Shown here: one piece after another, positions 4,050 to 31,085 of the stretch
How positions within the stretch are numbered: the first letter of the stretch is position 1
Layout: every line of letters begins with the position of its first letter
Origin: Candidatus Heimdallarchaeota archaeon
Lineage (GTDB): Archaea > Asgardarchaeota > Heimdallarchaeia > JABLTI01
DNA length: 32,000 nucleotides
Assembly: GCA_030614005.1 (NCBI GenBank)
Contig: JAUWKS010000011.1
Coordinates: 1 to 32,000 of the forward strand
Direction: 5' to 3'
Translations under genes and position numbers: made by a program
The notes under the pieces: model-generated
What the model was told of the DNA's origin: nothing
Database searches by the model: none
What the model saw: only the letters and a program-made list of their open reading frames with translations

Positions 4050-4054
4050 TGATT

Positions 4055-5295: not shown

Positions 5296-5297
5296 TT

Positions 5298-5906
5298 ATG
5301 ACTAAGAAAAAAAGTAATACTCGAGCAAAACGAGAAGTCGACTTTGAGTTAGCAGCAAAAATTGTTTTAGTTTTAACTGTAATTGGTATTCTTGTTTCCA
5401 CAGTTCTGATCTTTACTCCTCCGATAAGTGGAGAAGAATATGCTGAATTAGGATTACTAACCTATAATGCCTCAGAAGATAAATATGAAGCAGAAAATTA
5501 CCCCACAAATTTATTGTACGATAATACAGAAGGTGTATCTGAAAATATCTCTTTGTATATTCTCTTAGGTAACCATTATGAACGAGCAAAATTCTTCGAA
5601 GTAAGATTAAAAATCGGTCTCCAATCCGTGCTAATAAATCAAGATGTCTATGGAACAAATGATACAACCTATTTCCATGAAGCTCATTGGAAGCAAAAAG
5701 TACTTGCTGTAGGAGAACAATGGACTCCTTCATCAGAAACTGAATTTAAATTTCAATTTACTTCGGCTATTTTGGATAAGCTCGGAACTAGCTCTACAGG
5801 ATACAAAATAATTTTTGAACTATGGGAATGGAATAACCAATTAGATGATTTCAGTTACTCTGGCGTTCATGTCTATGTTACTTCAGTTAAACTGGTCTTT
5901 GTATAA
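5298..5906 (+). CDS. DUF1616 C-terminal (extracytoplasmic) domain protein with one N-terminal TM helix
   Basis: TM helix followed by GEEYAELGLL...AENYPTN...LYILLGNHY...FEVRLK, resembling the DUF1616 C-terminal domain. SD at 5286-5291; 2-bp gap from the upstream gene. Confidence 0.65.
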   Translation: MTKKKSNTRAKREVDFELAAKIVLVLTVIGILVSTVLIFTPPISGEEYAELGLLTYNASEDKYEAENYPTNLLYDNTEGVSENISLYILLGNHYERAKFFEVRLKIGLQSVLINQDVYGTNDTTYFHEAHWKQKVLAVGEQWTPSSETEFKFQFTSAILDKLGTSSTGYKIIFELWEWNNQLDDFSYSGVHVYVTSVKLVFV

Positions 5907-12977: not shown

Positions 12978-13096
12978 TGTGACAAATCCACCTGTTTCTA
13001 TCCGTAATGGTTAATAGGTTGCCAAACCTAGGAGAATGAAAACGTTTGCAAATATTAATTTTATGTCTTACTACTGTAATAAGAGAGAAAAAAGAA

Positions 13097-14233: not shown

Positions 14234-14723
14234 CTTAATTTCTAAAATAGATTGAATGCCAATTCATCCCTAGTAACTTTAGAATGAATATAATTGTTTT
14301 GCTAAAAAAAGTCCGTTCTCTACAATATTTCTGTTTTTTTTAAAAATATTGAAAGAAATAATTTTAAAATTGAAAAGATGGAAACTATTATTGAAATTAT
14401 TGGTTGATTAGGGGAAGAAACTAGCATTGAAAAAGATTATTTGCTTGAAATAGATTTTTGATATCAAGTTTTTCAAATTGAAACTGTTTTGTGATAACTC
14501 ATTATGATTTTAATGCATCAAATATTCTGATAAATCTAACAATTGAGTAATTTATCGAGTATAATAGATTTTGAGGAATGCATAACAAAAGATACACAGC
14601 TTTTGATTTACTTTTTATAACAAAGGATTTGAATTTATAAAAAAATATTTTTAGAAAGACATTAAATTTTTTTCCAAAATTGAAGTGCCATTTAGAAAAA
14701 GAAGAAAGAAATAATTCCTACTC

Positions 14724-15275
14724 TTAGCTTGAGTTGGGAATCAATTTTTCTTTTTCGAGATAAGCAATGATTATCTTAATGCTTTCTTCTACTGTTTCAT
14801 CTTCAGTATTACAGATGATTTGAGGATTAGGTGGAGCTTCGTAAGGATGGCTTACACCTGTGAAATCCTTTATTATGCCAGCAAAAGCTTTTTCGTACAA
14901 TCCTTTAACATCTCTTCGAGCACATTCTTCTACAGAAGCATTTACGAAAACTTCAATGAAGGGAGCATTTTCTCCATTTGCTTCTTTACGAGCAGTTTCT
15001 CTTGCAGCAATAAATGGAGAAATGAAAGATACTAGAGTTGCTACTCCATGTTTTGCTAACAATGTCGTAACAAAGGTTATTCTTTCAATATTCAAATTTC
15101 GATCATCTACTGAAAAGCCGAGATCTCTTGTAAAGGTCTTTCTAACGATATCTCCATCAAGCCTTTGCACTCGCAAATCTCTTTCAAGGAGCACTTTTTC
15201 TAATTCAACAGCAATTGTTGTTTTGCCCGAACCGGATAGGCCGGTAAACCATAATACAAAACCTGGGTCGTTCAT
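14724..15275 (-). CDS. cysC: Adenylyl-sulfate (APS) kinase
   Basis: VLWFTGLSGSGKTT P-loop, LDGDIVR, DRNLNIERI, FISPF...RE, RDVKGLY...FTGV..PYEAP. Confidence 0.95.
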   Translation of the reverse strand: MNDPGFVLWFTGLSGSGKTTIAVELEKVLLERDLRVQRLDGDIVRKTFTRDLGFSVDDRNLNIERITFVTTLLAKHGVATLVSFISPFIAARETARKEANGENAPFIEVFVNASVEECARRDVKGLYEKAFAGIIKDFTGVSHPYEAPPNPQIICNTEDETVEESIKIIIAYLEKEKLIPNSS

Positions 15276-15309
15276 TAATTTTCACTCTCAATAATTTTTT
15301 AATTTCATT

Positions 15310-16464
15310 TTACTTTACAAATAACTCCTTTTGTTTTAAGAGGTATTCAGCAACTTCAGGACGCATATATTCAGTTAACCCGTCAAGTTGTTTATCGACA
15401 ATCATTTTTCTGATTTTTTTACCGCTAATCATTTTTTGATATTCAGTGCCATCATGTGGACAAGTGTAATCATTCACTACTCCACCACATTTATCACATT
15501 TGAAGAATGAACGGAAGCAAATTGGTTTAATTTCCAAATCAGGGAATTTATCAAAAATAGCGTGTGCATCAAATGGACCATAATAGCTACCAACACCTGC
15601 ATGGTCTCTTCCGACGATGAAATGACTGCAACCAAAATTCTTTCTCATAATAGAGTGGAAAATTGCTTCTTTTGGTCCACCGTATCTCATTCTCGTTCTG
15701 AGAATACCCATCATTGTTCTATCTTTGCGATAATAGTTGTCCATAAGAACATTGTAGGCACCTAAAATAACTGGATCAGTGAAATCATTTGTTTTCTTTT
15801 TACCAATGATTGGGTTAACAAATAATCCATCTACCATTGTTAGTGCGGCTTTCTGTACGTATTCATGCCCTAAATGAGGAACATTTCTAGTTTGAAAACC
15901 TACAACAGTCTTCCAACCCTTTTTCTCAAACAGAGCCCTTGTTTGTTGTGGATAGAAAGTGTATTCTTTAAAATCAGTGATAAAAGTGTTTACAAGATCA
16001 ATTTTACCTGCAAATAAATTATCATTGGAATTAAGTACTTTTTCTACACCAGGATGAGCTGCATCGAGGGTTTGAAAAGAACTTTCTGCGATAGCTTTCT
16101 TCTCGTGCTTATAGATTTGTTCTAGATGTAAAACAGCAATAATTTTTCCTTCACTATTCGTTAAGGCAATATCATCACCTTCTGAATAGTTTTTTGCAGT
16201 AACATCATTGACATCGAATGTAATAGGAATGGTCCATGCTAAATCATTAACAAGTCTGTCATTTTTGATGATGGATTGAACATCCTCTTCCACCATAAAA
16301 CCTTCGAGAGGACTAAAAACACCGTGTGCGATGTTATAAAGATCCTCAATGACTTCATTGTTTACCTCTAGTTTTGGCATAGATTGAAATTCCGATTCAA
16401 TTCGAGCTTTATCTTTTTCTGGTAAGACTTTATCAGTTAGCTTATTACCGTGTGGGTTAATCAT
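15310..16464 (-). CDS. sat: Sulfate adenylyltransferase (ATP sulfurylase, homo-oligomeric Sat type)
   Basis: MINPHG start with a GGAGA SD upstream, FSPLEGFM, FQTRNVPHLGHEY, MRYGGPKEAIFHSIMRKNFGCSHFIVGRDHAGVG and C-x2-C...CPH zinc site. The 94-aa N-terminal extension in the ORF track is not supported. Confidence 0.95.
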   Translation of the reverse strand: MINPHGNKLTDKVLPEKDKARIESEFQSMPKLEVNNEVIEDLYNIAHGVFSPLEGFMVEEDVQSIIKNDRLVNDLAWTIPITFDVNDVTAKNYSEGDDIALTNSEGKIIAVLHLEQIYKHEKKAIAESSFQTLDAAHPGVEKVLNSNDNLFAGKIDLVNTFITDFKEYTFYPQQTRALFEKKGWKTVVGFQTRNVPHLGHEYVQKAALTMVDGLFVNPIIGKKKTNDFTDPVILGAYNVLMDNYYRKDRTMMGILRTRMRYGGPKEAIFHSIMRKNFGCSHFIVGRDHAGVGSYYGPFDAHAIFDKFPDLEIKPICFRSFFKCDKCGGVVNDYTCPHDGTEYQKMISGKKIRKMIVDKQLDGLTEYMRPEVAEYLLKQKELFVK

Positions 16465-16663
16465 TATTGACAATCTCCAGTAATTTAATTGAAATATAGA
16501 TTTAATTTCAATAACTAGTAATAGATGAAATATCCAAGGTGCTTTTTCAAGCTTGGACAATTTGAATGCCTGTGTCCGAATAAAGAAATTTAACCTCAAA
16601 TTAATAAGTGTATTGAAGAATATTTCAAATTGAGTAAACATCTCACCAAAGAAAAAAGCTCCT

Positions 16664-18829
16664 TTAGGATTTAGAGAAATTTTTACTGATAGATTTAATT
16701 TTCTGTAAATAATCACTCTCGAGATGGTTTGAAGATTTTTTAACAATCTCTTTTTTATATTGAGATTCTTTAATGCGTTGCTTCTTATGGTGTAAAATTA
16801 GCTGAGCCCATAATAACCCTAAAGCTGCTTTTTCTTCAATTTGTTGATTGTTACTATACTCTTTACTGAAAAGAACTAATTCATCAGCGAATTTTATAAC
16901 TGATTTCCAATCATCTGAATTAGTGGTTAGAATTAGAAAAGAATAGCCTTCTGCTAATTTTACTTGTATATTTTCATCAAAGGAATATCTATTTGCTATG
17001 CTTTTCAAAATTTCTAGTAGTTCTAACTTTCTCATTTCGACTGTTGAAGTAAATGCAAGAATCCCTTCATTTATTGCTCGAGCAATTTTCAAAGGAATTT
17101 TTTCGTCTCTGAGGCTTAATCTATTTGCTGTTTCAATTTCAATCTTTAATTGTTCAAGAAGAATTGTTTCCCCTCGTCTGGCTAAGAAGCTAATAAGACG
17201 TGTAATATTACTTACAAAATTAAACTGTTTATAATATTTAGAGAGAAATTTCAATCCCATCTTATTGATGATTTCTAAAAAGAATACTGTTCCAACTCCA
17301 TCCAATCTTGCTGCTCTAAGTGTTGTTGCTCGAATAAGTGGGTTTACTAATTCCACAATGAGTTTTTTCTCAGACATATTTGAGACGTGATCAAATATTT
17401 CTTCTTGAGAAATGTTCAATTTAGCACTATTGTAACCATGCATGCCTACAGAAAAAATGAGTGCTTTTGTATGCAATAATTGATTAATAAGAAATCTATT
17501 ATCATTAAGCTCAAGTTGCTTTAAAAATTCCAATTGCTCTAAAATTCTTTCTTCTTTTGTAGCGGCTAAAGTTAAATCGTCATCTCTAGACGTTTCATCT
17601 TGAATTTCATCAATAGTTTTTCTGTCAGCAGGTATTTGTCCTGTTTCCCGCAAATGTTCTTTAATATCATTATTATAATCAATTACTGCATCAATTTCCT
17701 CAACGATGCTGAATGGTTTGTTCTTTTCTAATTTTGTGTGTAGTTCCTTGGTTAATTTTTCAATATCCTCAATATCATTAATATCATAAGAAAGCTTAAG
17801 CCCTCTTCGACCTATTTTCAGAGCATCATATTCCTCTATTCGCATCATTTTTTGAATTGCAAGCAGCTTTCCTTCAGCAATTTTATATTGCTGATTCTTG
17901 TCTCGTTCTACACGTAAATCGATTACAATAGGAAGATCAGCTAATGTCTCCCAAAGATTATATTTATCCAATGTAATGCTTAATCGATATACATCCCTGT
18001 AAAATTCACTCTTATCTTTTCTCAATAATTTCTCCGAGTCTTGAAGTATCTCTCTGATTCCGGCAATACAATCCTCACAAGGTTTCTCTGTTTGATTATT
18101 TATACGCGCCATATTTAGAACTGCGTTGATGACTCCCTCTTGAAAAATGTCATCTATATCTTCTCCTAAAATTAAACGTAGTCCATTACTATTTTGATTT
18201 TCTGTGCTTTCACATTTGTGGCCACTAATTGAGAAGCCTATAAACTTCTGATAAAGATTTTTTATTGTTGAGCAATCCTGCTCATCAAGATAGAATAGTG
18301 CATTCAAGTATACTTTCGCATTTAGCAATTGAATGGCATCAATTAGAGGATGGAGAGCCCATTTCTCTTTTATCATAGAGATAATTTCTAGTATTTCATC
18401 ATCTTTTCCCCAACGAATAAGTTCTATGGATGCTCGAGATATCGCATCGTAAATGGTTTTATTTTCGGGTATTTTAACGATAATATCAATAAAGTCAGTA
18501 AAAAGATCAATTCGTCTTGTATCACGAATGTTGTAGCTATCAATTAGAAGCTTGTAAATTGCTCGAGAGAGAATATTTACTAACTCACTAAATTCTTTGG
18601 ACCACCAGGCAATTTCAACCAACTGATTCAAAATAACTCGTTCAGAGGTAACATCACCCTGTTCACTAAATGATTCCATTATTTCAAAGAGAATATTAGC
18701 AAATTCCTCTGTTTTCTTAGTGTCTTCTTTCAAGTCAATTTTACTTCTGCATTGTAGAATATATGCAAAGATATCTTCTTTAGACATCAGTAGATAGCTT
18801 TTTTTCAGCTGTTTAAGTTCCTTTGACAT
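16664..18829 (-). CDS. Large all-alpha-helical (solenoid-like) hypothetical protein
   Basis: About 720 aa of amphipathic helices with no TM segment and no nucleotide-binding motif. ATG at 18829 chosen because AGGTGA lies 8 nt upstream. Confidence 0.7.
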   Translation of the reverse strand: MSKELKQLKKSYLLMSKEDIFAYILQCRSKIDLKEDTKKTEEFANILFEIMESFSEQGDVTSERVILNQLVEIAWWSKEFSELVNILSRAIYKLLIDSYNIRDTRRIDLFTDFIDIIVKIPENKTIYDAISRASIELIRWGKDDEILEIISMIKEKWALHPLIDAIQLLNAKVYLNALFYLDEQDCSTIKNLYQKFIGFSISGHKCESTENQNSNGLRLILGEDIDDIFQEGVINAVLNMARINNQTEKPCEDCIAGIREILQDSEKLLRKDKSEFYRDVYRLSITLDKYNLWETLADLPIVIDLRVERDKNQQYKIAEGKLLAIQKMMRIEEYDALKIGRRGLKLSYDINDIEDIEKLTKELHTKLEKNKPFSIVEEIDAVIDYNNDIKEHLRETGQIPADRKTIDEIQDETSRDDDLTLAATKEERILEQLEFLKQLELNDNRFLINQLLHTKALIFSVGMHGYNSAKLNISQEEIFDHVSNMSEKKLIVELVNPLIRATTLRAARLDGVGTVFFLEIINKMGLKFLSKYYKQFNFVSNITRLISFLARRGETILLEQLKIEIETANRLSLRDEKIPLKIARAINEGILAFTSTVEMRKLELLEILKSIANRYSFDENIQVKLAEGYSFLILTTNSDDWKSVIKFADELVLFSKEYSNNQQIEEKAALGLLWAQLILHHKKQRIKESQYKKEIVKKSSNHLESDYLQKIKSISKNFSKS

Positions 18830-18927
18830 TGAGGTATTCACCTAATATAAAACACAGAGGATTATGAATCCCATTTTGCTTATCAACTTATCAGTAAACA
18901 TCAATAAATCTCTTTTTCTTAGTGCAT

Positions 18928-18980
18928 AAAAAAATTGAATAATAAAAAAGTAAGAGAGAATAGTGTCGCTATTATTCAAA
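18928..18980 (-). terminator. Putative terminator downstream of the lipid kinase gene
   Basis: 10-bp inverted arms TTGAATAATA (18935-18944) / TATTATTCAA (18970-18979), followed on the minus strand by a T7 tract. Confidence 0.5.
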
Positions 18981-19889
18981 TTAGCGCCATTTTATTTTCT
19001 CTGTAATGTGGTCCGGCATTTTTAATGTGGATAGAACTTTGTGTTTACAAACAAATTTGTAGGGGTAGTCGCCAAACATCTCACCCATAAAATGGTTGGG
19101 AACTCTATTGCTTGACAAGTTTTCTACGACAACTTTCTTTCCAAGAAGTTGTTCAACTTTCTTATGCTTGACATGTTTTCCTGTGTCCAAATTTCCTAGA
19201 ATATACAATTTTTGGATAAAATTAACATCACCGATGAGTGTAATGTCAAGTAAACCATCATCAATCACTGCCCCAGGACAGAGAATCTTTTTGTTTCCTG
19301 CACAAACACCATTTCCAATTGCAATATCTAAAAAGTTCATTTCACGAACTATTTTGCCATCGTCAATATCAACTTTCATATGATTTGTTTTGAACTTGAA
19401 AATATTTGCGAGAAGATTTTTTGTATAGGTAAAAGAGGTTTTAGCACCAATTGCACCTTCTGCCACAGCACCACTGATTCCAATTCCGACTAAAGAAAAG
19501 ACATATCGCTCTCCATCATTTACCTCTGTGCAATCAACTTTTCTAACTTCCTTCTTAACAAGCATCTCAACCATATCTTCCATTTCTAAGGTGAGATGTA
19601 AAGCATAAGCACTATCATTCCCTCTTCCAACAGGTAATATTGCCATAGTATTTTCGAATCCTGTTTGACCAATACCAGTAACAACTTCGTTAACAGTGCC
19701 ATCGCCACCGTAGACACCAATTATTTTATGATCCTTAACTGACTCTTTGGTTATTCTAATAGCATCATTAACGCCTTTGGTCCATTCTACTTCAAAATCA
19801 AGACCTGCTTCTTTGAAGGCTTTGATATATTTCGGCCATTTCTTACGAGCTTTCCCTGCATACGTATTTGGGTTACAAATGATTTTCAA
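18981..19889 (-). CDS. Diacylglycerol-kinase-family (YegS/DgkB-like) soluble lipid kinase
   Basis: IICNP..YAG, GGDGTVNEVVTG, ILPVGRGND, AIGNG...G, P.A.IDDGLLD. TTG start with a GGAG SD. Confidence 0.9.
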   Translation of the reverse strand: MKIICNPNTYAGKARKKWPKYIKAFKEAGLDFEVEWTKGVNDAIRITKESVKDHKIIGVYGGDGTVNEVVTGIGQTGFENTMAILPVGRGNDSAYALHLTLEMEDMVEMLVKKEVRKVDCTEVNDGERYVFSLVGIGISGAVAEGAIGAKTSFTYTKNLLANIFKFKTNHMKVDIDDGKIVREMNFLDIAIGNGVCAGNKKILCPGAVIDDGLLDITLIGDVNFIQKLYILGNLDTGKHVKHKKVEQLLGKKVVVENLSSNRVPNHFMGEMFGDYPYKFVCKHKVLSTLKMPDHITEKIKWR

Positions 19890-20085: not shown

Positions 20086-23000
20086 ATGAGCTCAAAATCT
20101 AAAAATAAATTGAAAGTAATATTAAAATCAAAAGAATCATTTCTAATAATTTGTTTGATACTTATCCCATTAGTACTAAATAATCAATATTCGAACAATT
20201 ATACTTCAGCCCATTCACCTGTATCGAGTCCAATGGAAATATTCTCCTTATGGAATGATACTATTCCCTTGATTGATGGTTTTGTTGATTTCAATTCTAC
20301 AAGCTCAGCTAGTGAATGGACAACAGCAGCAATTTATGATTTATTTAATACTGATCAAGATCCATCCTCAAAATTGCTTTTAAAAAATGATGACACTAAT
20401 CTCTATGTTGGAATAGATTGTATAAGCTATACAACAGAATCGCCTGCAAGTACATGGGGAATGGGCGTATACCTGGATCGTGATCATAACGGACTGCTAA
20501 GTCAAAATGACCGAGCAATATATTTTAAATCAAATGCAACAGATGAGCTAGTAATAATCTATCAATATAGCGCTCAGAACAATTTTTGGAAAGAAATAGA
20601 AACTGGTTATCTTGAGGACAACCTCACATCCTCGCACGTTGTAATAGATACTGATTTCAAGGACTCAGTTTTCGAAGAGCAACCTCATAGACAATATGAA
20701 ATAGTTATCCCATTATCATTAATGCAAGTAGCCCCCGGGCAAATAACTGGCATTGCTTTCGAGGTTTTTGAAAATTTATTTGGTGATGACGAGGAAAATA
20801 CTTGGCCATTTATTGAAACAACACCAAGAGATATAAGATTAAATGCTGGTCTTTGGGGCGATTTATTCATTGGGAAAAATTCTGGTGATTATTACACTAA
20901 ATATTCTATCGAAGACAATTTTAACATTAAAGATTCTGCAATCGGTCCAAATAATGGTACCTTTATGACTACTGCTGATATTAATGGAGATGGAGATTTA
21001 GAGCTGATTATTAGTTCAAACCGAACTGTTTCTTCTGATAATAATTTATTAGCGATTTATGATACAATCGATGGAGAATTAGTTAAAATATGGTCTTCGT
21101 GGTTTTCTGTTCATCAGAATAAGATGTTTTTAGTGAAGCAAATTGTTGCTTACGATTTCGATGAAAACGGACAAGATGAATTATATCTTGCAGGTGAAGA
21201 TAGTAGAATTCTAAGGTTAACAGAATGGGATGAAGAGATAAATGATTTTGATAAATCAGATTATGCTGTTACTCATACTTCAAGTTTAACAGGATATCTT
21301 GCAATTGGAGAGGCAACAAATATGGGTGTAATGAATTTAGTATTTGGAGATCAAAATGGAAAAGTCAATGTCTTGGAATATATTAATGCAACAGGTCTTT
21401 TTGAAAAAGATAAAAAATCACCTATTACTCCAATTGTTTCTGGTTATACTGTTGAAAAAATTCATGCAGTAGAAATTGCCGATGTAGATGCTGACGGTAG
21501 ATATGAAATATTAATGAATTTACAAATAACTTCAGACGATTCAATTTCAACAACTCGGTTACAGATCTATGAGAGAACTATAGCGAAATACCTGGAAAAC
21601 ATAGAAGATGATTTGCCATCAGCTTCATCTATTTTAACTGAAGATAATTTTGGTCATACAATCATTGTTGCTGATGTTGATAATGACTTGGAATCAGAAA
21701 TAGTTTTAGTAGGACAAAATTATTTGAGAATATTGAGTGCAAATTCTTTCCTAGATGCTGAACCACATTTAGAATTTAAAATTAATGATGAAGTAAATTC
21801 TCCATTCATGGGTGGTGGTGCATTAGTCTATGATGTGGATGATGACTCATATAATGAATTGGTTTTTAGTTGTAATAACGGCACTTTATTTGTAATCAAT
21901 ATTACAGATTCAGGAAGCAACTCATTATCTTACAATATAAAGTGGTCAAGTGATATTGGCTCTTCCTCAGGGAAAAGAAAGTCAATACTCGCTTATGATT
22001 TGGATGAGGATACAGAAACAGAAATAATATTCGGTGATAACTTTGGTCAAATAATGACTTTAGGTAAATCAGCTATTCCGGAAATAAGAATTCTCTCACC
22101 ATCATCAGGTTCAACTGTTTCAACATCATCTGTTCTAATTACTTGGGAAGGATTAGATGATTTTGCTATTCACCATTATGATATTTTTGTTGAAGGCAGT
22201 ATCCAAGGTAGAGTAAATGGCAGTCAAACTGCTTTTATTGTTTCTTTGCCATCATCAAGTAATACAATTGAAATTATTTGCTACGATGTTAACGGTAAGA
22301 GTGCTTCTGATTCAATTATTGTTAGTCAATCTACAACTGCACCACAAATTTACATTACAAGCCCTGAAAATTATTACCAAACAGCTTCTAATGACATTAG
22401 AATAGAATTCGATTATTCTGATCCAAATGATGATTTTGATCATTATGAAGTATGGATTGATGAAGCTCAATTTGGTGGAGATTATGCTCCATCTACTACT
22501 TTCGTAGATTTAACTTTGAATACCGATGGTGAACATAACATAACTGTAGTTGGTATTGATTCTAAGTTAAATAGAGGAAAAAGCTCAATATTTGTTACAG
22601 TTGATACAACTGCACCCTTATTGACAATTACTAATCCAATAAGCGGTTCAGCAATGAAACTGACAACAATTGAGCTGCAATGGACTGCATCGGATGCTCT
22701 AAGTGGATTATCACATTTTGTTGTGAAAAAAGATGGTTTTGTTTATGCAACCACATCAGCACTTTCACAATTAGTGTCATTGGATTCAGATAAAATTTAT
22801 GATCTACAAGTTACTGCTTACGATCAATTAGGAAATTCAAGAATAGATTCTATCACAATAGTGAAGGATACAGCAAAACCAACCGTTTTAATCACCGATC
22901 CAATTGATGGTTATACAACCTCTTCAGATCAATTAACAATAAATTGGGAATCAGAAGATAATATCGGTGGCACGGGTATTCATCATACTGAAGTAATTGT

Positions 23001-25614
23001 CAATCAGCAAACAAAATATTCCAGTACAGGTGCAACAACAGCTACCTTTTCAGTTGAGGATGAAGGTGTAAAAGATATCATCGTTACAACATATGATAAA
23101 GCGGGAAATATTGATACAGATCACATCATTGTTTATGTGGATAGTACTGTTCCTTATCTCGAAATTCTTTCACCAGAAACCGGCTTCATAACTGGTTTGG
23201 ATTATTTTATCGCTAATTGGTACAGCAATGATACTGGTTCAGGAATAGCTGAATACAATATCTATGTTGACAATGTATTAATAGAAACGATAAGTGATCC
23301 ATTAGTAACTACTACAATAGTACCATTGACCCTTGATCACACTTCCTCGATAATAATTAGTGTAGTTGATGTTTACGGTTATGTATTTAATGATACTATT
23401 TCTGTTACTCAAGATTCCACTCTCCCCTCAATTGCACTTATTACACCGCAAGCGAATTTCTCTTACATCTCTGACTCATTAATTTCCATTGAATGGGATG
23501 TAGCAAATATTCAAGATTTCATTTCATACTTCATATATGTTAATGAGACGCTTAATCAAACTATTAGCGATATTTCAACAAAGAATACTATTATTGATTT
23601 GGGAGCTATTCCGATAAATGAATATCCACTCTTTAATCTAACTATTGTTGTTCAGACCCTAAGTAACAATATTTCAGATACAAAATGGATCATTGTTGAT
23701 CAATCTATACCTTCAGTTACAATAATCACTCCGGCAAATTATACTACTTATTATCAAGATATAATCTATATTCAGTGGACAGCCAACGATCAGGGATCAG
23801 GTGTGTATAATTATAAAATTCTAGTAAATGGTCAATACCTTGAATTCTGCTCTTACGATAAAAATTATTATTATCTAATATTCAATGAAGAGGATGGAGA
23901 GCAATTAATAACCATTGAAGTATTCGATTTTGCTTCCAATAGAGCTACAAGCAACATTACACTTCTTTTGAATATCTTACTGCCTGAATATCAAGCAAAT
24001 ATTCCTACCATTTATTATACACAAGATGGTGACTTCCAATTTGATTTTACGGTGACAGACACGCAATCTGGTGTAAAGGGTTTAATTATGTTGTTAGATG
24101 ATGATGAAATAGTGAATGAGAACTATGAATTAGCAATTAGAAATGAATCATTTACTCTTTCATATGACTTTAATGAATCATCATTTACTGCATTAGATGA
24201 TAGTCATGAACTTGAAGTCGCAATACTTGACTTTTATAATCGTGAATTGATTCAATTATATATTATTAATATTGATACACAAAACCCAACAATTCTTCCA
24301 ACAATAACAGTTGATTCTGAATTACTAACTGCAGATGGATTAGAATTAGTAAATGGTAGCAAAGAGAGTCTCTTGTTCTTGGTAACTGTTACAGACAATT
24401 TTGGTATAGATAGAGTCACTTTAACTGTTGTAAGTGAAGATTCGACTGCAACATACGATATGATTGCTGAAACAGAAGAAGGACTTCAAGTTGTACATTA
24501 CTCTCTAAATTTAAGCATAGCTGATTTTGAAATAGGTGAATATACAATTATTTTCACTACATTTGATCTTGCAGGTAATAATCAAAGTTTATCATATAAT
24601 TTGGCTATTATTCCTATAGTAGAAATCCCGTGGTTCCAACAAGGAAATAATGCTATCTACCTATCCATAGGGATTGGTGGATTACTACTTATATCAACAA
24701 TGTTAGCTATAGGCGCTACAAAAGGACCCATTGCAAATAAAGATTGGAAAGAAGAAATTATTGCTGTTCTTTTTGTTAAGAAGACAGGATTAACTTGTGT
24801 TAGTGTTAATTATGTTCAGCAATTAATTCAGGAAGAACAATTAATTGGTGGAGCAATGATAGCAATCCAAAGTATGCTTACTGAAATTTCAGGAAGTAAA
24901 TTGAAAGGAACGATTGAAACTATGGAACTAGGTGATAGAACCATGTTTCTTTTCTTAGGTGAATATGGGATCAGTGTTTTAATGGTTAATCAAGTTAAAC
25001 CAATTCATAAGAAATTGCTAAAGAAATTCAATGACAAATTTGTTAAGAAATATTCTGTAGCATTAGAAAATCTATTCTTTGTAGATAGCACTTCTTTTCT
25101 TGGTAGTGAAAAACTTGTTGAAAAAATCTTTGGTCCAGTGAAGGAGATTACTCCAGAATCTGGAATTGCAAATCAATTGCAAACTATAATCGATGATATT
25201 AAACCAGAAGTAATCAGTATAATTGAAAAAGATAAGAAAGAATCAGATTTAATTCATGAAAGCGATTCTCCTATAGATCATTTAGTAAAACAATTATCTC
25301 GAGAATCAAATAGAAGTCTTACAAAAATAATAACTACTACTCCTGCAATAATAATTGCATTAGCTGAACAGAATTTTGATGAAGCAGAGACTCATTTACA
25401 ATCTGTAATTATGGATATTGAACTATTACGTCAACTAGAAAGAACGAATTTTGAGTTGCAGCTATTCATCGAAAATATGAGAACAATAACCAATGAAATA
25501 AGGGTAGCTATTGATGCTGGTCGGCAAAATGATACAACTAGACTAAGACAAGCAATCGAAAATTCAACTAGAATTTGGTTTGATGACATAGCTGAAAAAT
25601 GGTCTGATATCTAA
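20086..25614 (+). CDS. Giant single-pass surface receptor A: DOMON/CBM9-like domain, FG-GAP propeller, 9 Ig-like domains, TM, longin-like domain, helical tail
   Basis: N-terminal hydrophobic signal; IPLIDG...EW...KNDDTNLYVG...HRQYEIVIPL (DOMON/CBM9-like); seven DxDxDG-type repeats; nine ~90-100-aa repeats of the form P.i.I.sP...W...D..SGi..y.i.vng...i...D..GN; TM at ~24652-24717; cytoplasmic region with longin-type secondary-structure order. Confidence 0.85.
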   Translation: MSSKSKNKLKVILKSKESFLIICLILIPLVLNNQYSNNYTSAHSPVSSPMEIFSLWNDTIPLIDGFVDFNSTSSASEWTTAAIYDLFNTDQDPSSKLLLKNDDTNLYVGIDCISYTTESPASTWGMGVYLDRDHNGLLSQNDRAIYFKSNATDELVIIYQYSAQNNFWKEIETGYLEDNLTSSHVVIDTDFKDSVFEEQPHRQYEIVIPLSLMQVAPGQITGIAFEVFENLFGDDEENTWPFIETTPRDIRLNAGLWGDLFIGKNSGDYYTKYSIEDNFNIKDSAIGPNNGTFMTTADINGDGDLELIISSNRTVSSDNNLLAIYDTIDGELVKIWSSWFSVHQNKMFLVKQIVAYDFDENGQDELYLAGEDSRILRLTEWDEEINDFDKSDYAVTHTSSLTGYLAIGEATNMGVMNLVFGDQNGKVNVLEYINATGLFEKDKKSPITPIVSGYTVEKIHAVEIADVDADGRYEILMNLQITSDDSISTTRLQIYERTIAKYLENIEDDLPSASSILTEDNFGHTIIVADVDNDLESEIVLVGQNYLRILSANSFLDAEPHLEFKINDEVNSPFMGGGALVYDVDDDSYNELVFSCNNGTLFVINITDSGSNSLSYNIKWSSDIGSSSGKRKSILAYDLDEDTETEIIFGDNFGQIMTLGKSAIPEIRILSPSSGSTVSTSSVLITWEGLDDFAIHHYDIFVEGSIQGRVNGSQTAFIVSLPSSSNTIEIICYDVNGKSASDSIIVSQSTTAPQIYITSPENYYQTASNDIRIEFDYSDPNDDFDHYEVWIDEAQFGGDYAPSTTFVDLTLNTDGEHNITVVGIDSKLNRGKSSIFVTVDTTAPLLTITNPISGSAMKLTTIELQWTASDALSGLSHFVVKKDGFVYATTSALSQLVSLDSDKIYDLQVTAYDQLGNSRIDSITIVKDTAKPTVLITDPIDGYTTSSDQLTINWESEDNIGGTGIHHTEVIVNQQTKYSSTGATTATFSVEDEGVKDIIVTTYDKAGNIDTDHIIVYVDSTVPYLEILSPETGFITGLDYFIANWYSNDTGSGIAEYNIYVDNVLIETISDPLVTTTIVPLTLDHTSSIIISVVDVYGYVFNDTISVTQDSTLPSIALITPQANFSYISDSLISIEWDVANIQDFISYFIYVNETLNQTISDISTKNTIIDLGAIPINEYPLFNLTIVVQTLSNNISDTKWIIVDQSIPSVTIITPANYTTYYQDIIYIQWTANDQGSGVYNYKILVNGQYLEFCSYDKNYYYLIFNEEDGEQLITIEVFDFASNRATSNITLLLNILLPEYQANIPTIYYTQDGDFQFDFTVTDTQSGVKGLIMLLDDDEIVNENYELAIRNESFTLSYDFNESSFTALDDSHELEVAILDFYNRELIQLYIINIDTQNPTILPTITVDSELLTADGLELVNGSKESLLFLVTVTDNFGIDRVTLTVVSEDSTATYDMIAETEEGLQVVHYSLNLSIADFEIGEYTIIFTTFDLAGNNQSLSYNLAIIPIVEIPWFQQGNNAIYLSIGIGGLLLISTMLAIGATKGPIANKDWKEEIIAVLFVKKTGLTCVSVNYVQQLIQEEQLIGGAMIAIQSMLTEISGSKLKGTIETMELGDRTMFLFLGEYGISVLMVNQVKPIHKKLLKKFNDKFVKKYSVALENLFFVDSTSFLGSEKLVEKIFGPVKEITPESGIANQLQTIIDDIKPEVISIIEKDKKESDLIHESDSPIDHLVKQLSRESNRSLTKIITTTPAIIIALAEQNFDEAETHLQSVIMDIELLRQLERTNFELQLFIENMRTITNEIRVAIDAGRQNDTTRLRQAIENSTRIWFDDIAEKWSDI

Positions 25615-25636: not shown

Positions 25637-25668
25637 GTAAAATGAAATATGTTTTATATTTCATTTAC
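25637..25668. terminator. Hairpin between the convergent receptor genes (putative bidirectional terminator)
   Basis: Perfect 11-bp stem AAATGAAATAT (25640-25650) / ATATTTCATTT (25656-25666) with a 5-nt loop, extendable to 13 bp with one bulge; T-tract after the stop at 25614. Confidence 0.6.
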
Positions 25669-28600
25669 TCTTCACTATTATCAATGCTATCATTGAGTGA
25701 ATCATAGTCGTTTTCATAGGATTCAACATGTTCTACTTCTTCTGTAGGAATAGTTTCAGCTAAGGTTTCAGTTGGATGCTCAGCGTTAGTTGATAATTCT
25801 TCAGAGTGTTCTCTGACTGGTTCCTCTGTAAAGGTAAAATCATTAGCATTTTGATCAGCCGATTCCTCTGTAGAGGGAGTTTCTCGACTATTTCTAAAAT
25901 CTTCACTTCTCGCACCAAAGTAACTTTCAACCATTAGGGGAGCAGCATCATAATCATTCAGATTAAGCATATCTTGTGCTAGAGTATGCTTATAGGTCAA
26001 TTCAAATTCAAGAATGAAATTTTTAAGCAAATCTTTCAAAATAGGCTTCGCTTCACTTACCAATAGGATAGCATTTCCAAAAATTCCAGAACAAACAAGA
26101 AGGCGTTTTCCTCCATATTCTATTGTTTGAACTTTCATTGTAACTTCTTCTTCACCTGTTATCTCTCCGAGAATGCCTACAATACCTGTTAAGGCACCTC
26201 CAAATAACTGCTCATCGGCGTATAAATCTTCAGCGTATTGAATATATGCAACAGTTAATCCTGTTTTGGTAACATAAGCAACAGCTTTAATAACATCACG
26301 CCAACCGCGATTTCCTCCTCTCTTACGGGCAACAACTGTTATGATTGTCGCTAATATGAGCATTAGTAGTAATCCCGCTGCACTTGGAATAACAATAGTA
26401 AAGAGATTATCCATTAACCATTGACTAGATCCACCTGGTGTAGTTGGAGGTGGTGTTGTGATAATTTGCTGTTGTTCAATAGAAACTACTAGCGAAAAAG
26501 ATTGTGACAAAGTATTGCCTGCATTATCTGTAATCAAAAATTGTATACTGTAAATTCCTGCAGAATAGTCATCAAAATTAACAGAGATGTCAAACACAAA
26601 GACAGTAGAAGTTGAATGCTCAGCATTGAATGCCATTTGATAGGAGAAAGTGTGATTTTCATTAGAAATGAGTAAATTGACTTGCTGGATTCCACTATTA
26701 TCAGTTGTTGACACAGTAAAATTATGTACATCAGTTCTATTTTCTGAAATTTCAATATTATATCCTGATGGACCTAATAGAGTGCTATCAATTATTGGAT
26801 TGAACAGATATGGATTTTCCTTATCTATAATAATATCAACTGTTGTAGTAGCACTTCGACCACCGCGGTCGTATATTGTTATCGTTAAATTGTGTTCATT
26901 TGAAGGCGCAACAAAGTCCACTTCTTCTACATTGACTATAACATCAAAAGGATCAACTCGATAACTTTCATTATAATTGATATAATAAACTATTTCTGAA
27001 TTATCAGCTAAAACAAATACTTCTTGTATCCCGGAACTAGGATTAGTAATTGATATTGTAACCGGGAAATTTGGATCATTAGTTATCACTGAAGCAGAAA
27101 TATCAAGAGTAAATTCAGGCTCAGAAGGGAAAAGATTGATGTAAATGGTAGAATTTATTGCATTACCAGCGAAATCTCGTCCTTCTAATATTATCATATA
27201 TACTCCATCTGTATAGCTTTCAACATCAATCTCTCTCACAGTAATCGTTTTATCCCAGCTGTCAATTAACGTATCGTTGACCCATAGTGTATAGCTACTA
27301 ATGTCTGAACCAATATCGCTTCCTGACCAAGTTATCACAACCGAATCATCAGAAATTGTTGCAAAATTTAAAGGAGAAATAATGGCTACTACTGGGTTCT
27401 TTAAATCAACAATAACATATTTTGTATCAAAAAATTGGTATTGTCCTCCAATAACTGCGACAACGGTAATATTCGCTATTGGATAGGTGTTTTCATCAAT
27501 TAAACCAAATACGTCTTCTAAATTGATAATAGTATCAAAAGTAGTATTTGTATATGGATAATCAGTTCCATTAATGAAAACGATGAACGAATCTGGATTG
27601 ATATTTATTGTTTCCCAAGTCACTTCTACAAATGTTGAGTTGATATAGCTAGATTCAGCTAATGGATTGGTTATAATTAATATTGGTGAAATAGGATCAT
27701 GCTCAACATTGATAGTGTCTTCTGCAAAATTATCTAGAAAATCAGTAACTCGAATAGTTATTGTATAAATTTTTGTTTCGGAAATATCGACAAAATATGA
27801 GTTAATTGTTGGATCTGTAAATGTTGCTACAGTAAAACTATCAACAATAACAACAATTTCTTTTATTCCTGAACCTATATCTGATGCATCCCAGAAAACA
27901 GTGACATTTTCTGCACTAGTTAAATAATTGTTCTCTGGAGAAGTAATAGTTACTTGAGGGTTAGATACATCATAAGCAATAATGAAATAATCACTGGCAA
28001 AGTTTCCAGCCATATCATAAGCAACTATTTTAACGTTATTTCCTCCTTCTTCAGTTAGAGTAATCGTATCATCTACTTCAGTAGAAGTATAGTTACTAAA
28101 TTGTTCACCATTTATTAAAACTTCAAAATAGTCTATACCACTTCCACTTGCAGTATCATTGCCATTCCATTCAATGAATACATCTGCTAAATCAGTAACA
28201 AACCAACCATCATCATTCACTGGATAACTTAAAGACTCTAATGAAACTGAAGGGTCAATAGTATCTCGAGTAACCTGAATTGAATCTGAACCTGTTTTGC
28301 CTAAAATATCATAGGCTAAAACTACCAAGGTATATTCTTTTTCAAAGGGAAGATCAACATCATAATATTTGGTTGTAGTATTTCCTTGCAGTTCTCCATC
28401 ACGATAGATTTCATAATAATCAATAGAGCTATGTTCATCGTATGCTGACCATTTGAGTTGGATCAAACTGCTACTTACAAAAGAATTATCTGCTGGAGAA
28501 GTAATAGCAATGACTGGACCTGTATTATCATATGTAACATAAATCATATCTTTTACTCTATCACTTCCATCTGTAGCAATTACAGTAATGTTCCAAGTAC

Positions 28601-31085
28601 CTTCTGAATCAAAACTAAAAGTATGTTGCAGTAGTGAAGTTGTTCCTTTATCTGTACCGTTAGCATATACTTCAAAAGTAAGATCATCTGATTGAGGGTC
28701 GTATGCATCCCAATAGATTGTAATAGATGATAGATCTGTCAAAAAACCATTTTCAGGACTTGTTATATCTATTGTTGGTGCACCGGCATTGTATATCACT
28801 GATCGACTGTCTGAATCAGTTTCACCTCGAATGTCTGTACAAACAATATTAACAACATTACTTCCTGATTCTAAAGGAATCACCGCGCCAGTTTGTGCTC
28901 CACCAACTCTTAAAGAAAGTTTGGCATTAATGTAAATATCATAGAAAACTATAGGCAAAGAGTCATTTGAGGTTTCCCACTCAAATAAAATGGTATTTTG
29001 ACCGGTAGTATAACCTTCAATTGGAGAAGTAATTGAAAAGGAGGGTAATTCACCCAAACCAAGAACAATTATTTGACCAAATTGGTCACCAATAAACGCC
29101 TCTTCTGCTCCATCTCCATCAATATCCAAGCCAATGATTGAACCTCTTTTACCAGGCATGGTACCTAAATCACCTTTCCATTCAGTGATAACAAATAAAT
29201 CTTCAATAGCATCATCAGGATTTAAATCAACGATTTGATATACAAAGGTAGTTCCATTATTACAACCAACAATTAATTCATTATACGAATCGCCATCAAT
29301 ATCAAAAACTCCTGCACCTCCACCCATAGATGGATATGTTTCATCATTGATATCAAGCACTAATGGAATTGTTGTATCATTAAATGTGTCATGACCGAAA
29401 ATTTTCAAGTAGTCTTTTCCGACAATAATTGTTTCATGTATTCCATCATTGTCAACATCAGCAACAATAATCGTATGACCAAAACTATCAAAGGTATTTG
29501 AATGTGAACTTATTGGTAAATCATCTTCATATCCATATGTTGGGTCTGCAGTTGGATTATCATAAATTGATGTGCCTGTAAGTTCAAAAATCTGTAAACC
29601 AGTTGATGAGACTGAATCATCAGCTGAAAACTGGGATAACAGTAGAATTTCATTTACGTTCCAGCTATCATGATCCGACTCAGCAATTTCTACTGCATGA
29701 ATTTTTGTAATTGATGAGCTATTGATATCTGGTGCAATATACCAAGCATCATTCCATTGCGTAAATGGTTTGAATTCTTTATCATATTCAAGAATAGTAA
29801 AAGTTGTATCGCTATCGCCAATGAGAATATTAGCATTACCATCATTGGTAGCATCACCTATAGCAATATACCCCATTGTATTGTAAACATTATCAAATGC
29901 TAAATCTAGTGTGTCGAAGTCTCCGGAAACATCATTCCAATCTTTTAATCTCAATATTCGAGAATCTTCTGTGCTTGCCATATATATTTCATCTTCTCCA
30001 TCACCTGTGAAGTCATAACAAGCAATGCCTTGTGTTAGAAAGAGGCTATCCTTATGGGTTGAAGTCCATGAGTTCCAAATTTGAGTTATTTCTCCATCGA
30101 CAGTATCATAAATAGCAATTAAATTAGTGTCCACTGAAACAGTTCGATTTGAGCTGACAATTAATTCTAAATCACCATCTCCGTTAATATCACCTGATGA
30201 TAGAAAGGTACCGTTATTGGTGCCAATGGCTCCATCTTTTATGTTAAAATTATCTTCAATAACATATTTGGTGTAAACACCGTTTTCACCAAGATAAATA
30301 TCTCCCCAGCAATTCGCTGTTGTCCTAAAAATAGTTGAAGAATCATCAGTATAGGGCCAAGTAATACTCCCCGTACCAGAAGAATATATATTCGTAGCAG
30401 CAAAACCAATTCCGAAAAGATCACCTGGATTTTTATTCAGGGTGTCAAGATCAATTTTGAATTCATATTGTCTGTGAGAGTTTGTTGAGTCAAAAAATGA
30501 TTTTGAATAATCCATGTCTACAGTGACATTGTAAGTTGGAATTTCCACACCAGTTGTATCTGTAGCTAACAAATCCCATTGCCCATTACTTAATCCTCTA
30601 TAAATATCAACATGTAAAGTATCATTTACCTCATTCATGACAGAAACATATCTATCACTTGTGTCTAAAATACCATTATGATTTAAGTCAAAGACTATTC
30701 CTGCTCCCCAAGCAGTAGCTGGATCTTCAACTTCATAGTCAATCATATCGAATCCAATATAGAGATATGAATCATCATTTTGTAGGAAAACTTTACCTCT
30801 AGGACTTTCCAAATTATCATACATATCATAAACAGCTGCTGAAGCCCATTCAATTGAAGCATCTGTACCATTGAATTCTATTTTGCCATCTAGGTTCGGT
30901 AGAATCGTACTATTATAGAGCGAATAGATTTCTTTTGGATATGCAAGAGGTGAATGTCCTCTAATTGGTGTATAATTGAAATTATAGATTGCGATAAATA
31001 ATGAAGCAGTTAATAGTACTATCAAGAATAATTTAATACTACCCTTCTTAAATTTACTAATATGAAAATGGGGATTTATAGGCAT
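25665..31085 (-). CDS. Giant single-pass surface receptor B, paralog of A, with an acidic disordered C-terminal tail
   Basis: Same domain order as receptor A; a PPPTTPGG linker before the TM helix (~26331-26408); ARKR stop-transfer; longin-like domain at ~25914-26297; E/S/T-rich tail. Confidence 0.85.
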   Translation of the reverse strand: MPINPHFHISKFKKGSIKLFLIVLLTASLFIAIYNFNYTPIRGHSPLAYPKEIYSLYNSTILPNLDGKIEFNGTDASIEWASAAVYDMYDNLESPRGKVFLQNDDSYLYIGFDMIDYEVEDPATAWGAGIVFDLNHNGILDTSDRYVSVMNEVNDTLHVDIYRGLSNGQWDLLATDTTGVEIPTYNVTVDMDYSKSFFDSTNSHRQYEFKIDLDTLNKNPGDLFGIGFAATNIYSSGTGSITWPYTDDSSTIFRTTANCWGDIYLGENGVYTKYVIEDNFNIKDGAIGTNNGTFLSSGDINGDGDLELIVSSNRTVSVDTNLIAIYDTVDGEITQIWNSWTSTHKDSLFLTQGIACYDFTGDGEDEIYMASTEDSRILRLKDWNDVSGDFDTLDLAFDNVYNTMGYIAIGDATNDGNANILIGDSDTTFTILEYDKEFKPFTQWNDAWYIAPDINSSSITKIHAVEIAESDHDSWNVNEILLLSQFSADDSVSSTGLQIFELTGTSIYDNPTADPTYGYEDDLPISSHSNTFDSFGHTIIVADVDNDGIHETIIVGKDYLKIFGHDTFNDTTIPLVLDINDETYPSMGGGAGVFDIDGDSYNELIVGCNNGTTFVYQIVDLNPDDAIEDLFVITEWKGDLGTMPGKRGSIIGLDIDGDGAEEAFIGDQFGQIIVLGLGELPSFSITSPIEGYTTGQNTILFEWETSNDSLPIVFYDIYINAKLSLRVGGAQTGAVIPLESGSNVVNIVCTDIRGETDSDSRSVIYNAGAPTIDITSPENGFLTDLSSITIYWDAYDPQSDDLTFEVYANGTDKGTTSLLQHTFSFDSEGTWNITVIATDGSDRVKDMIYVTYDNTGPVIAITSPADNSFVSSSLIQLKWSAYDEHSSIDYYEIYRDGELQGNTTTKYYDVDLPFEKEYTLVVLAYDILGKTGSDSIQVTRDTIDPSVSLESLSYPVNDDGWFVTDLADVFIEWNGNDTASGSGIDYFEVLINGEQFSNYTSTEVDDTITLTEEGGNNVKIVAYDMAGNFASDYFIIAYDVSNPQVTITSPENNYLTSAENVTVFWDASDIGSGIKEIVVIVDSFTVATFTDPTINSYFVDISETKIYTITIRVTDFLDNFAEDTINVEHDPISPILIITNPLAESSYINSTFVEVTWETININPDSFIVFINGTDYPYTNTTFDTIINLEDVFGLIDENTYPIANITVVAVIGGQYQFFDTKYVIVDLKNPVVAIISPLNFATISDDSVVITWSGSDIGSDISSYTLWVNDTLIDSWDKTITVREIDVESYTDGVYMIILEGRDFAGNAINSTIYINLFPSEPEFTLDISASVITNDPNFPVTISITNPSSGIQEVFVLADNSEIVYYINYNESYRVDPFDVIVNVEEVDFVAPSNEHNLTITIYDRGGRSATTTVDIIIDKENPYLFNPIIDSTLLGPSGYNIEISENRTDVHNFTVSTTDNSGIQQVNLLISNENHTFSYQMAFNAEHSTSTVFVFDISVNFDDYSAGIYSIQFLITDNAGNTLSQSFSLVVSIEQQQIITTPPPTTPGGSSQWLMDNLFTIVIPSAAGLLLMLILATIITVVARKRGGNRGWRDVIKAVAYVTKTGLTVAYIQYAEDLYADEQLFGGALTGIVGILGEITGEEEVTMKVQTIEYGGKRLLVCSGIFGNAILLVSEAKPILKDLLKNFILEFELTYKHTLAQDMLNLNDYDAAPLMVESYFGARSEDFRNSRETPSTEESADQNANDFTFTEEPVREHSEELSTNAEHPTETLAETIPTEEVEHVESYENDYDSLNDSIDNSEE

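Follow-up and report, generated by a model that had tools for sequence, protein, structure and literature searches.

The convergent pair of giant genes in the 32,000-nt window (the whole stretch of DNA analysed) raises the question of what kind of domain their products carry beneath the membrane, and what such a domain could do there. Gene A (20086-25614, + strand) is a stop-free ORF of 1842 aa and gene B (25665-31085, - strand) an ORF of 1806 aa; B is a collinear paralogue of A, and 50 bp separate the two stop codons. The domain order of A runs from an N-terminal signal or anchor through a predicted FG-GAP-type propeller region and many Ig-like domains to a TM helix, a longin domain and a helical tail. 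Residues 1-1550 of A gave Pfam matches to FG-GAP_3, Big_7 and Glucodextran_B, and B matched FG-GAP, FG-GAP_3, Big_7, Glucodextran_B and HYR, with matches to FG-GAP_3 (E 7e-10) and FG-GAP (E 1e-7) at residues ~290-370 of the two proteins. Judged by domain order, A and B are predicted to be giant integrin-like surface proteins of this Heimdall (Asgard) archaeon. Databases name such proteins 'hypothetical' or 'VCBS repeat-containing'. Orthologues of A in Heimdallarchaeota/Asgard MAGs are 1831-1858 aa long, and in another genome a B-type orthologue of 1764 aa is convergent to an A-type gene. The cytoplasmic part comprises ~300 residues in A and ~220 in B, each with a longin domain.

The initial annotation had placed these longin-like domains in the cytoplasm just under the TM helix, at 24751-25137 (+) and 25914-26297 (-). 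The first stretch is stop-free and encodes residues 1556-1684 of A (1842 aa), the second residues 1597-1724 of B (1806 aa). In A the TM helix is a hydrophobic 21-mer, I1524-A1544 (24655-24717, +), for which a Kyte-Doolittle scan gives 1524-1542; in B it spans approximately F1562-A1586 (26328-26402, -) in the translation and 1564-1582 in the hydropathy scan, and is followed by RKRGGNRG. Because Lys and Arg residues trail the hydrophobic helix, the positive-inside rule assigns the longin domains of both proteins to the cytoplasm, the location that had been proposed. A conserved Trp follows the helix end after 10 residues in A and 9 in B. Counted from this Trp, the A domain extends from W1554 to residue 1684 (24745-25137, +; AlphaFold2 model), which lengthens the flagged stretch by two codons upstream, and the B domain from W1595 to residue 1724 (25914-26303, -; alignment to A and family profile). 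The ~10-residue linker with the conserved Trp keeps the longin domain at the membrane's inner face, and the juxtamembrane W..I.AV motif is invariant between A and B.

An AlphaFold2 model of the A domain built with 118 homologues (pLDDT 91.3, pTM 0.87; model residue 1 is A residue 1548) reproduced the β-β-α-β-β-β-α-α order read earlier from the translation. DSSP assigned strands to model residues 11-18, 23-28, 62-68, 71-77 and 81-87, and helices to 37-55, 92-108 and 127-135, with short ones at 110-114 and 121-124. The result is a five-stranded antiparallel sheet in the order β1-β2-α1-β3-β4-β5-α2-α3. Single-sequence AlphaFold2 of the longin part gave a pLDDT <50, and the fold is read solely from the alignment-built model.

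Structural alignment of this model with VIA-align gave Z 12.6 for the VAMP7 longin (118 residues aligned, model 5-138), Z 12.0 for Fuzzy (123 aa, model 10-138), Z 11.8 for Sec22 (model 10-137) and Z 10.9 for the lokiarchaeal longin 8yqg (130 aa, model 2-140). Bet5 reached Z 10.4, with the TRAPP longins spanning Z 10.0-10.4, Mon1/Ccz1 Z 10.2-10.3 and BLOC-3 Z 8.9. The SRX domain of SR-alpha scored Z ~10, LAMTOR subunits Z 9.4-9.9, the longins of AP sigma/mu, COPI zeta/delta and SNAREs Z 9-12.6, and profilin Z 8.3. The top Foldseek TM-scores, 0.58-0.64, belonged to TRAPP Bet5/TRAPPC1. The best full-length structural matches are thus solved longins, including those of TRAPP (Bet5/TRAPPC1/synbindin) and Mon1-Ccz1, which bears out the longin fold proposed for the domain. 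Ranked by Foldseek E-value, the roadblock protein MglB came first, with alignments ending near model residue 110-115; the expectation that a longin would be the best match held for the full-length matches and failed for this ranking.

What separates the two folds is the reach of the alignments: those to longins take in the C-terminal helices, whereas those to roadblock proteins stop at model residue 106-115. A roadblock/LC7 domain (PF03259, MglB-like) was rejected on the model's own topology. Only a four-residue turn (model 7-10) and no N-terminal helix precedes β1, and after β5 come two long helices, separated by two short ones, where a roadblock domain has at most one. A longin SNARE (VAMP7, Sec22, Ykt6) was rejected as well: such proteins begin with the longin and continue with a SNARE motif and a C-terminal membrane anchor, whereas in A and B the TM helix precedes the longin, which is the reversed order, and no SNARE family match was found in the tails. 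On the model, the A domain is assigned to the longin fold within the roadblock/longin superfamily, and each giant surface protein ends cytoplasmically in a single longin-type domain.

The structure model was built for the A domain only; B was assigned by alignment and profile score. The tails of A and B share 34% identity over 158 residues including the hydrophobic helix (BLASTP E 2e-23), their alignment across the longin domain contains only two gaps of one residue each, and B scores E 1.1e-40 against the family profile. The motifs KTGL, EQL.GGA..I..L.EI.G and KPI.K.LLK.F...F...Y, quoted in the initial annotation as shared, are invariant between A and B.

Searched alone against Pfam and PDB sequences, neither the A nor the B tail gave a match, and the longin domain is unnamed in Pfam and in the depositors' annotation. 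The family profile searched against PDB sequences found Bet5 as best match (E 0.0028). Weak Pfam matches among the 118 members were to Sybindin (14 members), Fuz_longin_1 (12) and Intu_longin_1 (9), with a best E of 3.3e-5 across these three models, and to Robl_LC7 (5, neither A nor B among them) and Clat_adaptor_s (3). These sequence-level hints are weak and would favour the TRAPP sybindin/Bet5 and Mon1/Fuzzy longins.

Searching 1.84 billion representatives with a profile of A and B found 320 proteins at E≤1e-3, of which 28 scored E≤1e-30, and this speaks against a chance observation. Of the 300 Asgard genomes searched, 299 contain a protein matching at E≤1e-5, and 35 proteins of the present genome match the family profile. 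The carriers include adhesin-like single-pass giants, MFS-like proteins with 9-12 TM helices and ~360-aa proteins with 6-7. In most of ~148 representative matches, 8-15 residues separate the end of a hydrophobic helix from the Trp, which is 91% conserved among 118 family members; membrane tethering is a family trait. Conserved positions in the family alignment are mostly core hydrophobics and glycines; helix α1 further shows a conserved stripe of small residues (G42xxxG46, numbered as in the model), and two acidic residues of surface type, E53 (86%) and E106 (84%), are conserved as well. The A/B domain therefore belongs to a large unannotated Asgard-wide family of juxtamembrane longin tails on very different membrane proteins. 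Expansion of longin and roadblock domains and their shuffling in Asgard archaea are established (Klinger 2016, as cited in later work; 10.1101/2020.10.19.343400; PMC10933270, Tran et al. 2024). Juxtamembrane longin tails, or FG-GAP/Ig giants with one, are undescribed in the literature searched, with a prior mention in Klinger et al. 2016 possible.

Beyond the longin domain the paralogues diverge. Residues ~1729-1839 of A (25270-25602, +) are predicted to form an up-down helical bundle of ~110 residues; in single-sequence AlphaFold2, pLDDT values of 68-92 are confined to this part. Its structural matches were only generic four-helix bundles with Z≤12.3, too low to mean anything. Talin rod and alpha-catenin bundles were among them, and the A-type bundle is assigned to no family, as Z values of this size mean little for helical bundles. 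B has no counterpart of this bundle, its C-terminal tail (25668-25913, -) consisting of ~80 acidic, low-complexity residues. The A, C103 and C75 paralogue groups retain tails of 120-195 residues, and B-clade members have short tails of 1-76 residues.

At least seven genomes share the convergent arrangement of the giant pair. In the tree, B falls into a separate clade with support 97/99; this well-supported clade of its own implies that the duplication is old. Tandem pairs of ~550-aa, 10-11-TM members (50-53% identical) and of ~360-aa, 7-TM members occur too, so that three architectures of the longin-tail family show such pairs of neighbouring paralogues. Adjacent paralogues can stem from duplication alone. 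Prediction of an A-B longin complex, with a 118-row alignment for each partner, gave a score of 0.19-0.20, short of the 0.32 mark, a value that counts neither for nor against binding. An A-B heterodimer might act as a GEF-like platform, as the initial annotation had suggested, and the recurring paralogue pairs support this idea indirectly.

Longin and roadblock dimers of known structure bind GTPases, and Asgard genomes fuse longins to GTPases (PMC10933270); one such fusion is also found in this genome (contig C49), which has about 50 matches to small GTPases (Ras/Arf/Rag-like) and 13 roadblock genes. At the loci examined, no GTPase or roadblock gene adjoins A, B or their orthologues. Proteins of this genome that match the family profile lie no closer to GTPase genes than random ORFs do: 4 of the 35 are ≤5 kb from one, compared with a background of 13% (permutation p ~0.67). 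At six other family loci, an Arf-like gene was 3 kb away in one case and a roadblock gene 4 kb away in another, and eight family loci from other genomes had no consistent neighbour of any kind. Elsewhere in this genome, contig C110 carries two roadblock genes clustered with a Rag/Arf-like GTPase and one longin protein, the latter with an N-terminal longin followed by four TM helices, an architecture different from that of A and B and without direct bearing on them.

The longin GAPs FLCN, NPRL2 and SMCR8 carry an Arg finger and a GP motif in the loop between β1 and β2 (PMC12290439). This loop reads KKTGL in A and TKTGL in B, and columns 18-22 of the family alignment contain neither a conserved Arg nor a GP motif; they show K (48%) at column 19, S/T at 20, G (97%) at 21 and L/I at 22. 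Since Arg and GP are missing, the known signature of a GAP-type longin mechanism is absent. The FLCN/NPRL2-type mechanism was rejected as a candidate on this ground and appears unlikely for the longin tails.

The reading we put forward, at somewhat less than an even chance and by analogy with characterised longin systems, is that paired longin tails dock or regulate a small GTPase and relay binding by the ectodomain. The longin tail would serve as a docking platform, and two tails, either A with B or two of the same kind, could pair via G42xxxG46 of α1 and the sheet edge in the manner of solved longin and roadblock dimers. The paired platform would then recruit or regulate one of the ~50 small Ras/Arf/Rag-like GTPases of the genome, whether as exchange factor, GAP or plain tether. 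When the FG-GAP/Ig ectodomain binds a ligand or surface, the event may in this way be relayed to a plasma-membrane GTPase switch.

Several of the same observations would also fit a module for dimerisation or clustering only, with tails that hold membrane proteins together and involve no GTPase. The adjacent paralogue pairs in three architectures, the conserved G42xxxG46 stripe of α1, the lack of GTPase gene enrichment near the 35 family members and the dimeric state of solved Asgard longin/roadblock domains (8yqg, 9jue, 9jq8; PMC10933270) are consistent with it. However, it leaves E53, E106 and the conserved Trp unexplained, and nearly all characterised longin/roadblock dimers are platforms for a further partner (PMC10933270); we consider it unlikely. 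The presence of one tail on transporters, 7-TM proteins and adhesins suits a general-purpose handle as well as a GTPase platform, and such an adaptor could bind a non-GTPase partner, namely the actin cytoskeleton, ESCRT/coat-like machinery or a sorting or turnover system. That unrelated membrane proteins carry the tail points in this direction, as do the structural matches to AP sigma/mu, COPI zeta/delta and SNARE longins and profilin, the precedent of AP sigma/mu and SNARE longins that bind peptides and coats, and the A-type helical bundle, which could offer a second binding site. Yet Pfam hints of TRAPP and Mon1 type outnumber those of adaptor longins (14 and 12 members versus 3), and no conserved neighbour of any kind was found at the loci examined, so that an adaptor handle has in our estimate a low probability.

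A cytoplasmic sensor, in which the α/β fold would bind a small molecule or lipid in PAS/GAF-like fashion and regulate its carrier from inside, seems very improbable. The longin/roadblock α/β core is common to the PAS/GAF superfamily (as cited in PMC4917890), weak PAS_GdpP matches occur in four members (best E 0.002; A itself E 0.12), and on transporters a regulatory plug would be well placed right under the membrane. No PAS/GAF structure, however, stands among the 50 top structural matches, and no conserved pocket-type residues are evident in the family alignment.

In eukaryotes, longin and roadblock domains form the membrane platforms for the control of Rab, Rag and Arf GTPases. For Asgard GTPases, most of which have no lipid anchor and whose regulators are difficult to assign, membrane attachment is an open question in the field (PMC4917890, PMC10933270). 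A longin fused to a TM helix, near-universal in the Asgard genomes searched and found on many carriers, provides a concrete membrane anchor point. Extending GTPase docking to a phylum-wide device is a bolder and rather doubtful step: tail pairs under adhesin-like receptors, MFS-type transporters and 7-TM proteins might recruit or switch small GTPases at the plasma membrane, as a prokaryotic forerunner of Ragulator, TRAPP and Mon1-Ccz1, and A and B would then add an integrin-like outside-in signalling route. Were the tail only a dimerisation handle, a large unnamed family would still gain a useful annotation.

A and B can be set beside several known systems. They share with integrin alpha, at the level of Pfam, a predicted FG-GAP-type propeller region, the Ig-like stalk and the single TM helix, but the cytoplasmic tail of integrin alpha is short whereas A and B carry a folded longin domain of ~130 residues; furthermore, integrin alpha partners with a beta subunit, and B, the neighbour of A, is a second alpha-like paralogue and not beta-like. 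Asgard longin/roadblock proteins of known structure (PDB 8yqg, 9jue, 7yh1) come from the same phylum and superfamily, but are soluble or GTPase-fused, unlike the juxtamembrane tails of A and B. Tri-longin GEFs are peripheral heterodimers of paralogous longin proteins with three longins per subunit. First-longin Pfam models of this group (Mon1-Ccz1, Fuzzy-Inturned/CPLANE, HPS1-HPS4/BLOC-3) weakly match 12 and 9 of the 118 members; A and B were rejected as such subunits, since each has a single longin, with a helical bundle after it in A and an acidic tail in B. Ragulator (LAMTOR1-5)-Rag and SR-alpha SRX-SR-beta serve as working analogies, as membrane-held roadblock/longin modules that dock small GTPases, although Ragulator is lipid-anchored via LAMTOR1 and built of roadblock domains, and the SRP receptor has its membrane anchor on the GTPase, not on the longin. 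TRAPP binds its Rab on a surface made by a pair of different longins. Its subunits Bet5/TRAPPC1 and Trs23/TRAPPC4 synbindin (Sybindin, PF04099) are, like the A/B domain, single longins of ~140 residues, and Bet5 leads both the sequence-profile matches and the Foldseek TM-scores, yet with sequence likeness below curated thresholds. The longins of TRAPP are soluble and flanked by Bet3-family subunits, whereas those of A and B are fused C-terminal to the TM helix of a giant surface protein.

The two convergent giant ORFs of the window, gene A (20086-25614, + strand, 1842 aa) and gene B (25665-31085, - strand, 1806 aa), both have a hydrophobic N-terminus, a Pfam FG-GAP/FG-GAP_3 match near residues 290-370 and, over the next ~1200 residues, several Ig-like families (Big_7, Glucodextran_B and HYR). 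Each protein has one hydrophobic helix (I1524-A1544 in A, about F1562-A1586 in B), followed by basic residues and then by a juxtamembrane Trp (W1554 in A, W1595 in B). The longin-like domain was placed by the initial annotation at 24751-25137 in A and 25914-26297 in B; these stretches translate free of stops to residues 1556-1684 and 1597-1724, respectively, and all motifs listed there as shared are invariant between A and B, whose tails share 34% identity over 158 residues (E 2e-23). Since one hydrophobic helix and basic residues precede this domain, the ectodomain is predicted to be extracellular and the domain itself cytoplasmic, separated from the membrane by about ten residues. At their C-termini, A-type giants have an up-down helical bundle of ~110 residues (25270-25602, + strand) that is predicted with confidence and for which the structural matches were generic four-helix bundles only. 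B is devoid of this bundle and has an acidic, low-complexity tail.

Simple sequence searches of Pfam and PDB with the A and B domains gave no match. An exhaustive HMM search with a combined A and B profile retrieved 320 representative proteins at E<=1e-3, from which 118 domain segments were aligned and used for AlphaFold2 modelling of the A domain (pLDDT 91.3, pTM 0.87). The model has, in this order, two strands, a long helix, three further strands, a second long helix, two short helices and a final helix, reproducing almost element by element the hand-predicted longin order. Independently of Foldseek, comparison of the model with 48,161 solved chains gave the longin of VAMP7 (Z 12.6, 118 aligned residues, rmsd 3.0), Fuzzy of CPLANE (Z 12.0), Sec22 (Z 11.8), the longin domain of a Lokiarchaeal Roadblock-Longin protein (8yqg, Z 10.9, 130 aligned residues), TRAPP Bet5 (Z 10.4), Mon1/Ccz1 (Z 10.2-10.3), and Synbindin and the SR-alpha SRX domain (Z ~10.0). 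Roadblock proteins (Prometheoarchaeum Roadblock3 and MglB, Z 10-11) aligned only up to model residue ~106-115, leaving the last helix uncovered. In Foldseek, MglB was the top hit by E-value (9.7e-5), and the highest TM-scores were those of TRAPP Bet5/TRAPPC1 (0.58-0.64, full-length alignments). Sequence comparisons agreed faintly: the best PDB match of the family profile was Bet5 (E 0.0028), and among the 118 members, scanned singly against Pfam, 14 matched Sybindin (best E 3.3e-5), 12 Fuz_longin_1, nine Intu_longin_1, five Robl_LC7 and three Clat_adaptor_s. We conclude that the A/B domain belongs to the roadblock/longin superfamily and is of the longin type; its closest kinds are the TRAPP and Mon1/Fuzzy longins, and it is too divergent to be placed in any curated family.

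In the family alignment (residue 1 is A residue 1548), the conserved positions include the juxtamembrane W7 (91% of aligned members), G21 in the beta1-beta2 turn (97%), G42 and G/A46, which are spaced by one turn of helix alpha-1 (small residues in 90% and 88%), and E53 (86%); L39, F101, F105, Y109, L113, F124 and F135 are conserved as well. E106, one of the few conserved polar residues, is Glu in 84% of the family and in B (residue 1694); A departs from the consensus here with Val at residue 1653 (25060-25062).

Giants are not the sole carriers of this domain. In most of ~148 representative matches, 8-15 residues separate the end of a preceding hydrophobic helix from the Trp position. The carriers range from single-pass proteins of 750-1900 aa, whose ectodomains are of beta-helix or Ig-like type, through 6-7-TM proteins of ~360 aa and 9-12-TM proteins of 520-630 aa, of which some match MFS_1 weakly or below threshold, to short proteins with one TM helix. 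Of 300 genomes sampled from the window's phylum, 299 had matches at E<=1e-5, generally more than 12 per genome. The closest giants come, by source name, from Heimdallarchaeota/Asgard MAGs and are annotated as 'hypothetical protein' or 'VCBS repeat-containing protein'. In the ESM Atlas, most neighbours by fold were Promethearchaeota and Thorarchaeota proteins, with look-alike tails also on Thermoplasmatota surface proteins and bacterial OmpA-family proteins. The window's own genome encodes 35 proteins matching the profile at E<=1e-3, including four giants, two in the window and one on each of contigs C103 and C75. In the tree of the giants' longin domains, three clades are well supported: the B type (97/99), whose tails are short (1-76 residues), and the types of C103 and C75. 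A-type sequences form an unresolved grade; all giant types except B have a tail of 120-195 residues.

Two other assemblies retain the convergent A/B arrangement together with the same upstream genes, and paired coordinates place it in at least four more genomes of the same genus. In one of the two assemblies, GCA_018238155 (L011:15567-19901), the B-type partner has only 1318 aa and a 114-aa short-chain-dehydrogenase fragment lies between both genes, so this pair may be rearranged or truncated. Members of ~550 aa, in which 9-11 predicted TM helices precede a juxtamembrane longin at the C-terminus, form tandem pairs with 50-53% identity within the pair (L017:1503-5019, L018:1712-5210), more of which were found in the 300-genome sample, and ~360-aa 7-TM members are also paired in tandem. 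As a rule, longin and roadblock modules act as dimers of paralogues. The recurrent pairs fit this rule but fall short of proving it, because related genomes do not count as independent cases and genes are often duplicated in tandem.

Upstream of A (11841-19889), two sulfotransferases, an APS kinase, an ATP sulfurylase and a ~720-aa protein without Pfam match are encoded, and this set is kept beside the giant pair in two other Heimdall-type assemblies (L011:2060-9799, L012:2896-9780); two of these three loci also have a YegS/DAGK-type lipid kinase. The retention of a sulfate-activation cluster beside giant surface proteins suggests that the giants or their glycans are sulfated. Elsewhere in the window (4046-5906, + strand), Pfam DUF1616 is found in two pieces, profile positions 5-120 in ORF 4046-4765 and 148-271 in ORF 5298-5906, separated by a 177-aa ORF without match; the gene is either split or interrupted.

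We tentatively propose that the longin tails pair as a platform fixed at the membrane, which might dock or regulate a small GTPase and thereby couple the ectodomain, or the transporter in other family members, to the switch. This idea rests on the fold, the nearest families and the pairing and not on gene context, because GTPase genes are not close by: none of the about 50 small-GTPase matches and 13 roadblock genes of the genome lies on the contigs of the giants, and the distance to GTPase genes is no shorter for its 35 genes that match the profile than for random ORFs. Eight loci of other genomes had one Arf-like gene 3 kb off and one roadblock gene 4 kb off. Such sparse neighbours agree with the remark that Asgard GTPase genes are generally outside operons of roadblock or longin genes (PMC10933270). 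We consider it unlikely that the tail is purely a dimerisation or clustering handle, and grant equally low odds to an adaptor handle that binds a partner other than a GTPase, for instance cytoskeleton or coat-like machinery; a small-molecule sensor appears highly improbable.

Contig C110 of the same genome (L013:3245-8900) encodes a 362-aa protein that has a longin-like domain at its N-terminus and four TM helices after it. The gene of a 427-aa Rag/Arf-like GTPase (Gtr1_RagA, E 1.8e-10) is divergent to it at a distance of 238 bp, and within 3 kb there are two roadblock genes, one LAMTOR5-like and one MP1/LAMTOR3-like. At another locus (L020:175-7229), the gene for a 791-aa protein without Pfam match lies 2.3 kb downstream of a single-pass family member of 785 aa, and the next gene encodes a Vps4-like AAA ATPase.

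Expansion and shuffling of roadblock/longin modules in Asgard archaea are well documented (10.1101/2020.10.19.343400; PMC10933270; PMC4917890). The searchable literature, a scope outside which Klinger 2016 falls, held no description of a juxtamembrane longin tail or of FG-GAP/Ig giants with one. The beta1-beta2 region of the family alignment has no conserved Arg and no GP motif, and in this the juxtamembrane longins differ from the GAP longins FLCN, NPRL2 and SMCR8, of which Arg and GP are the signature, and from the Asgard longins that share this signature and have been likened to them (PMC12290439).
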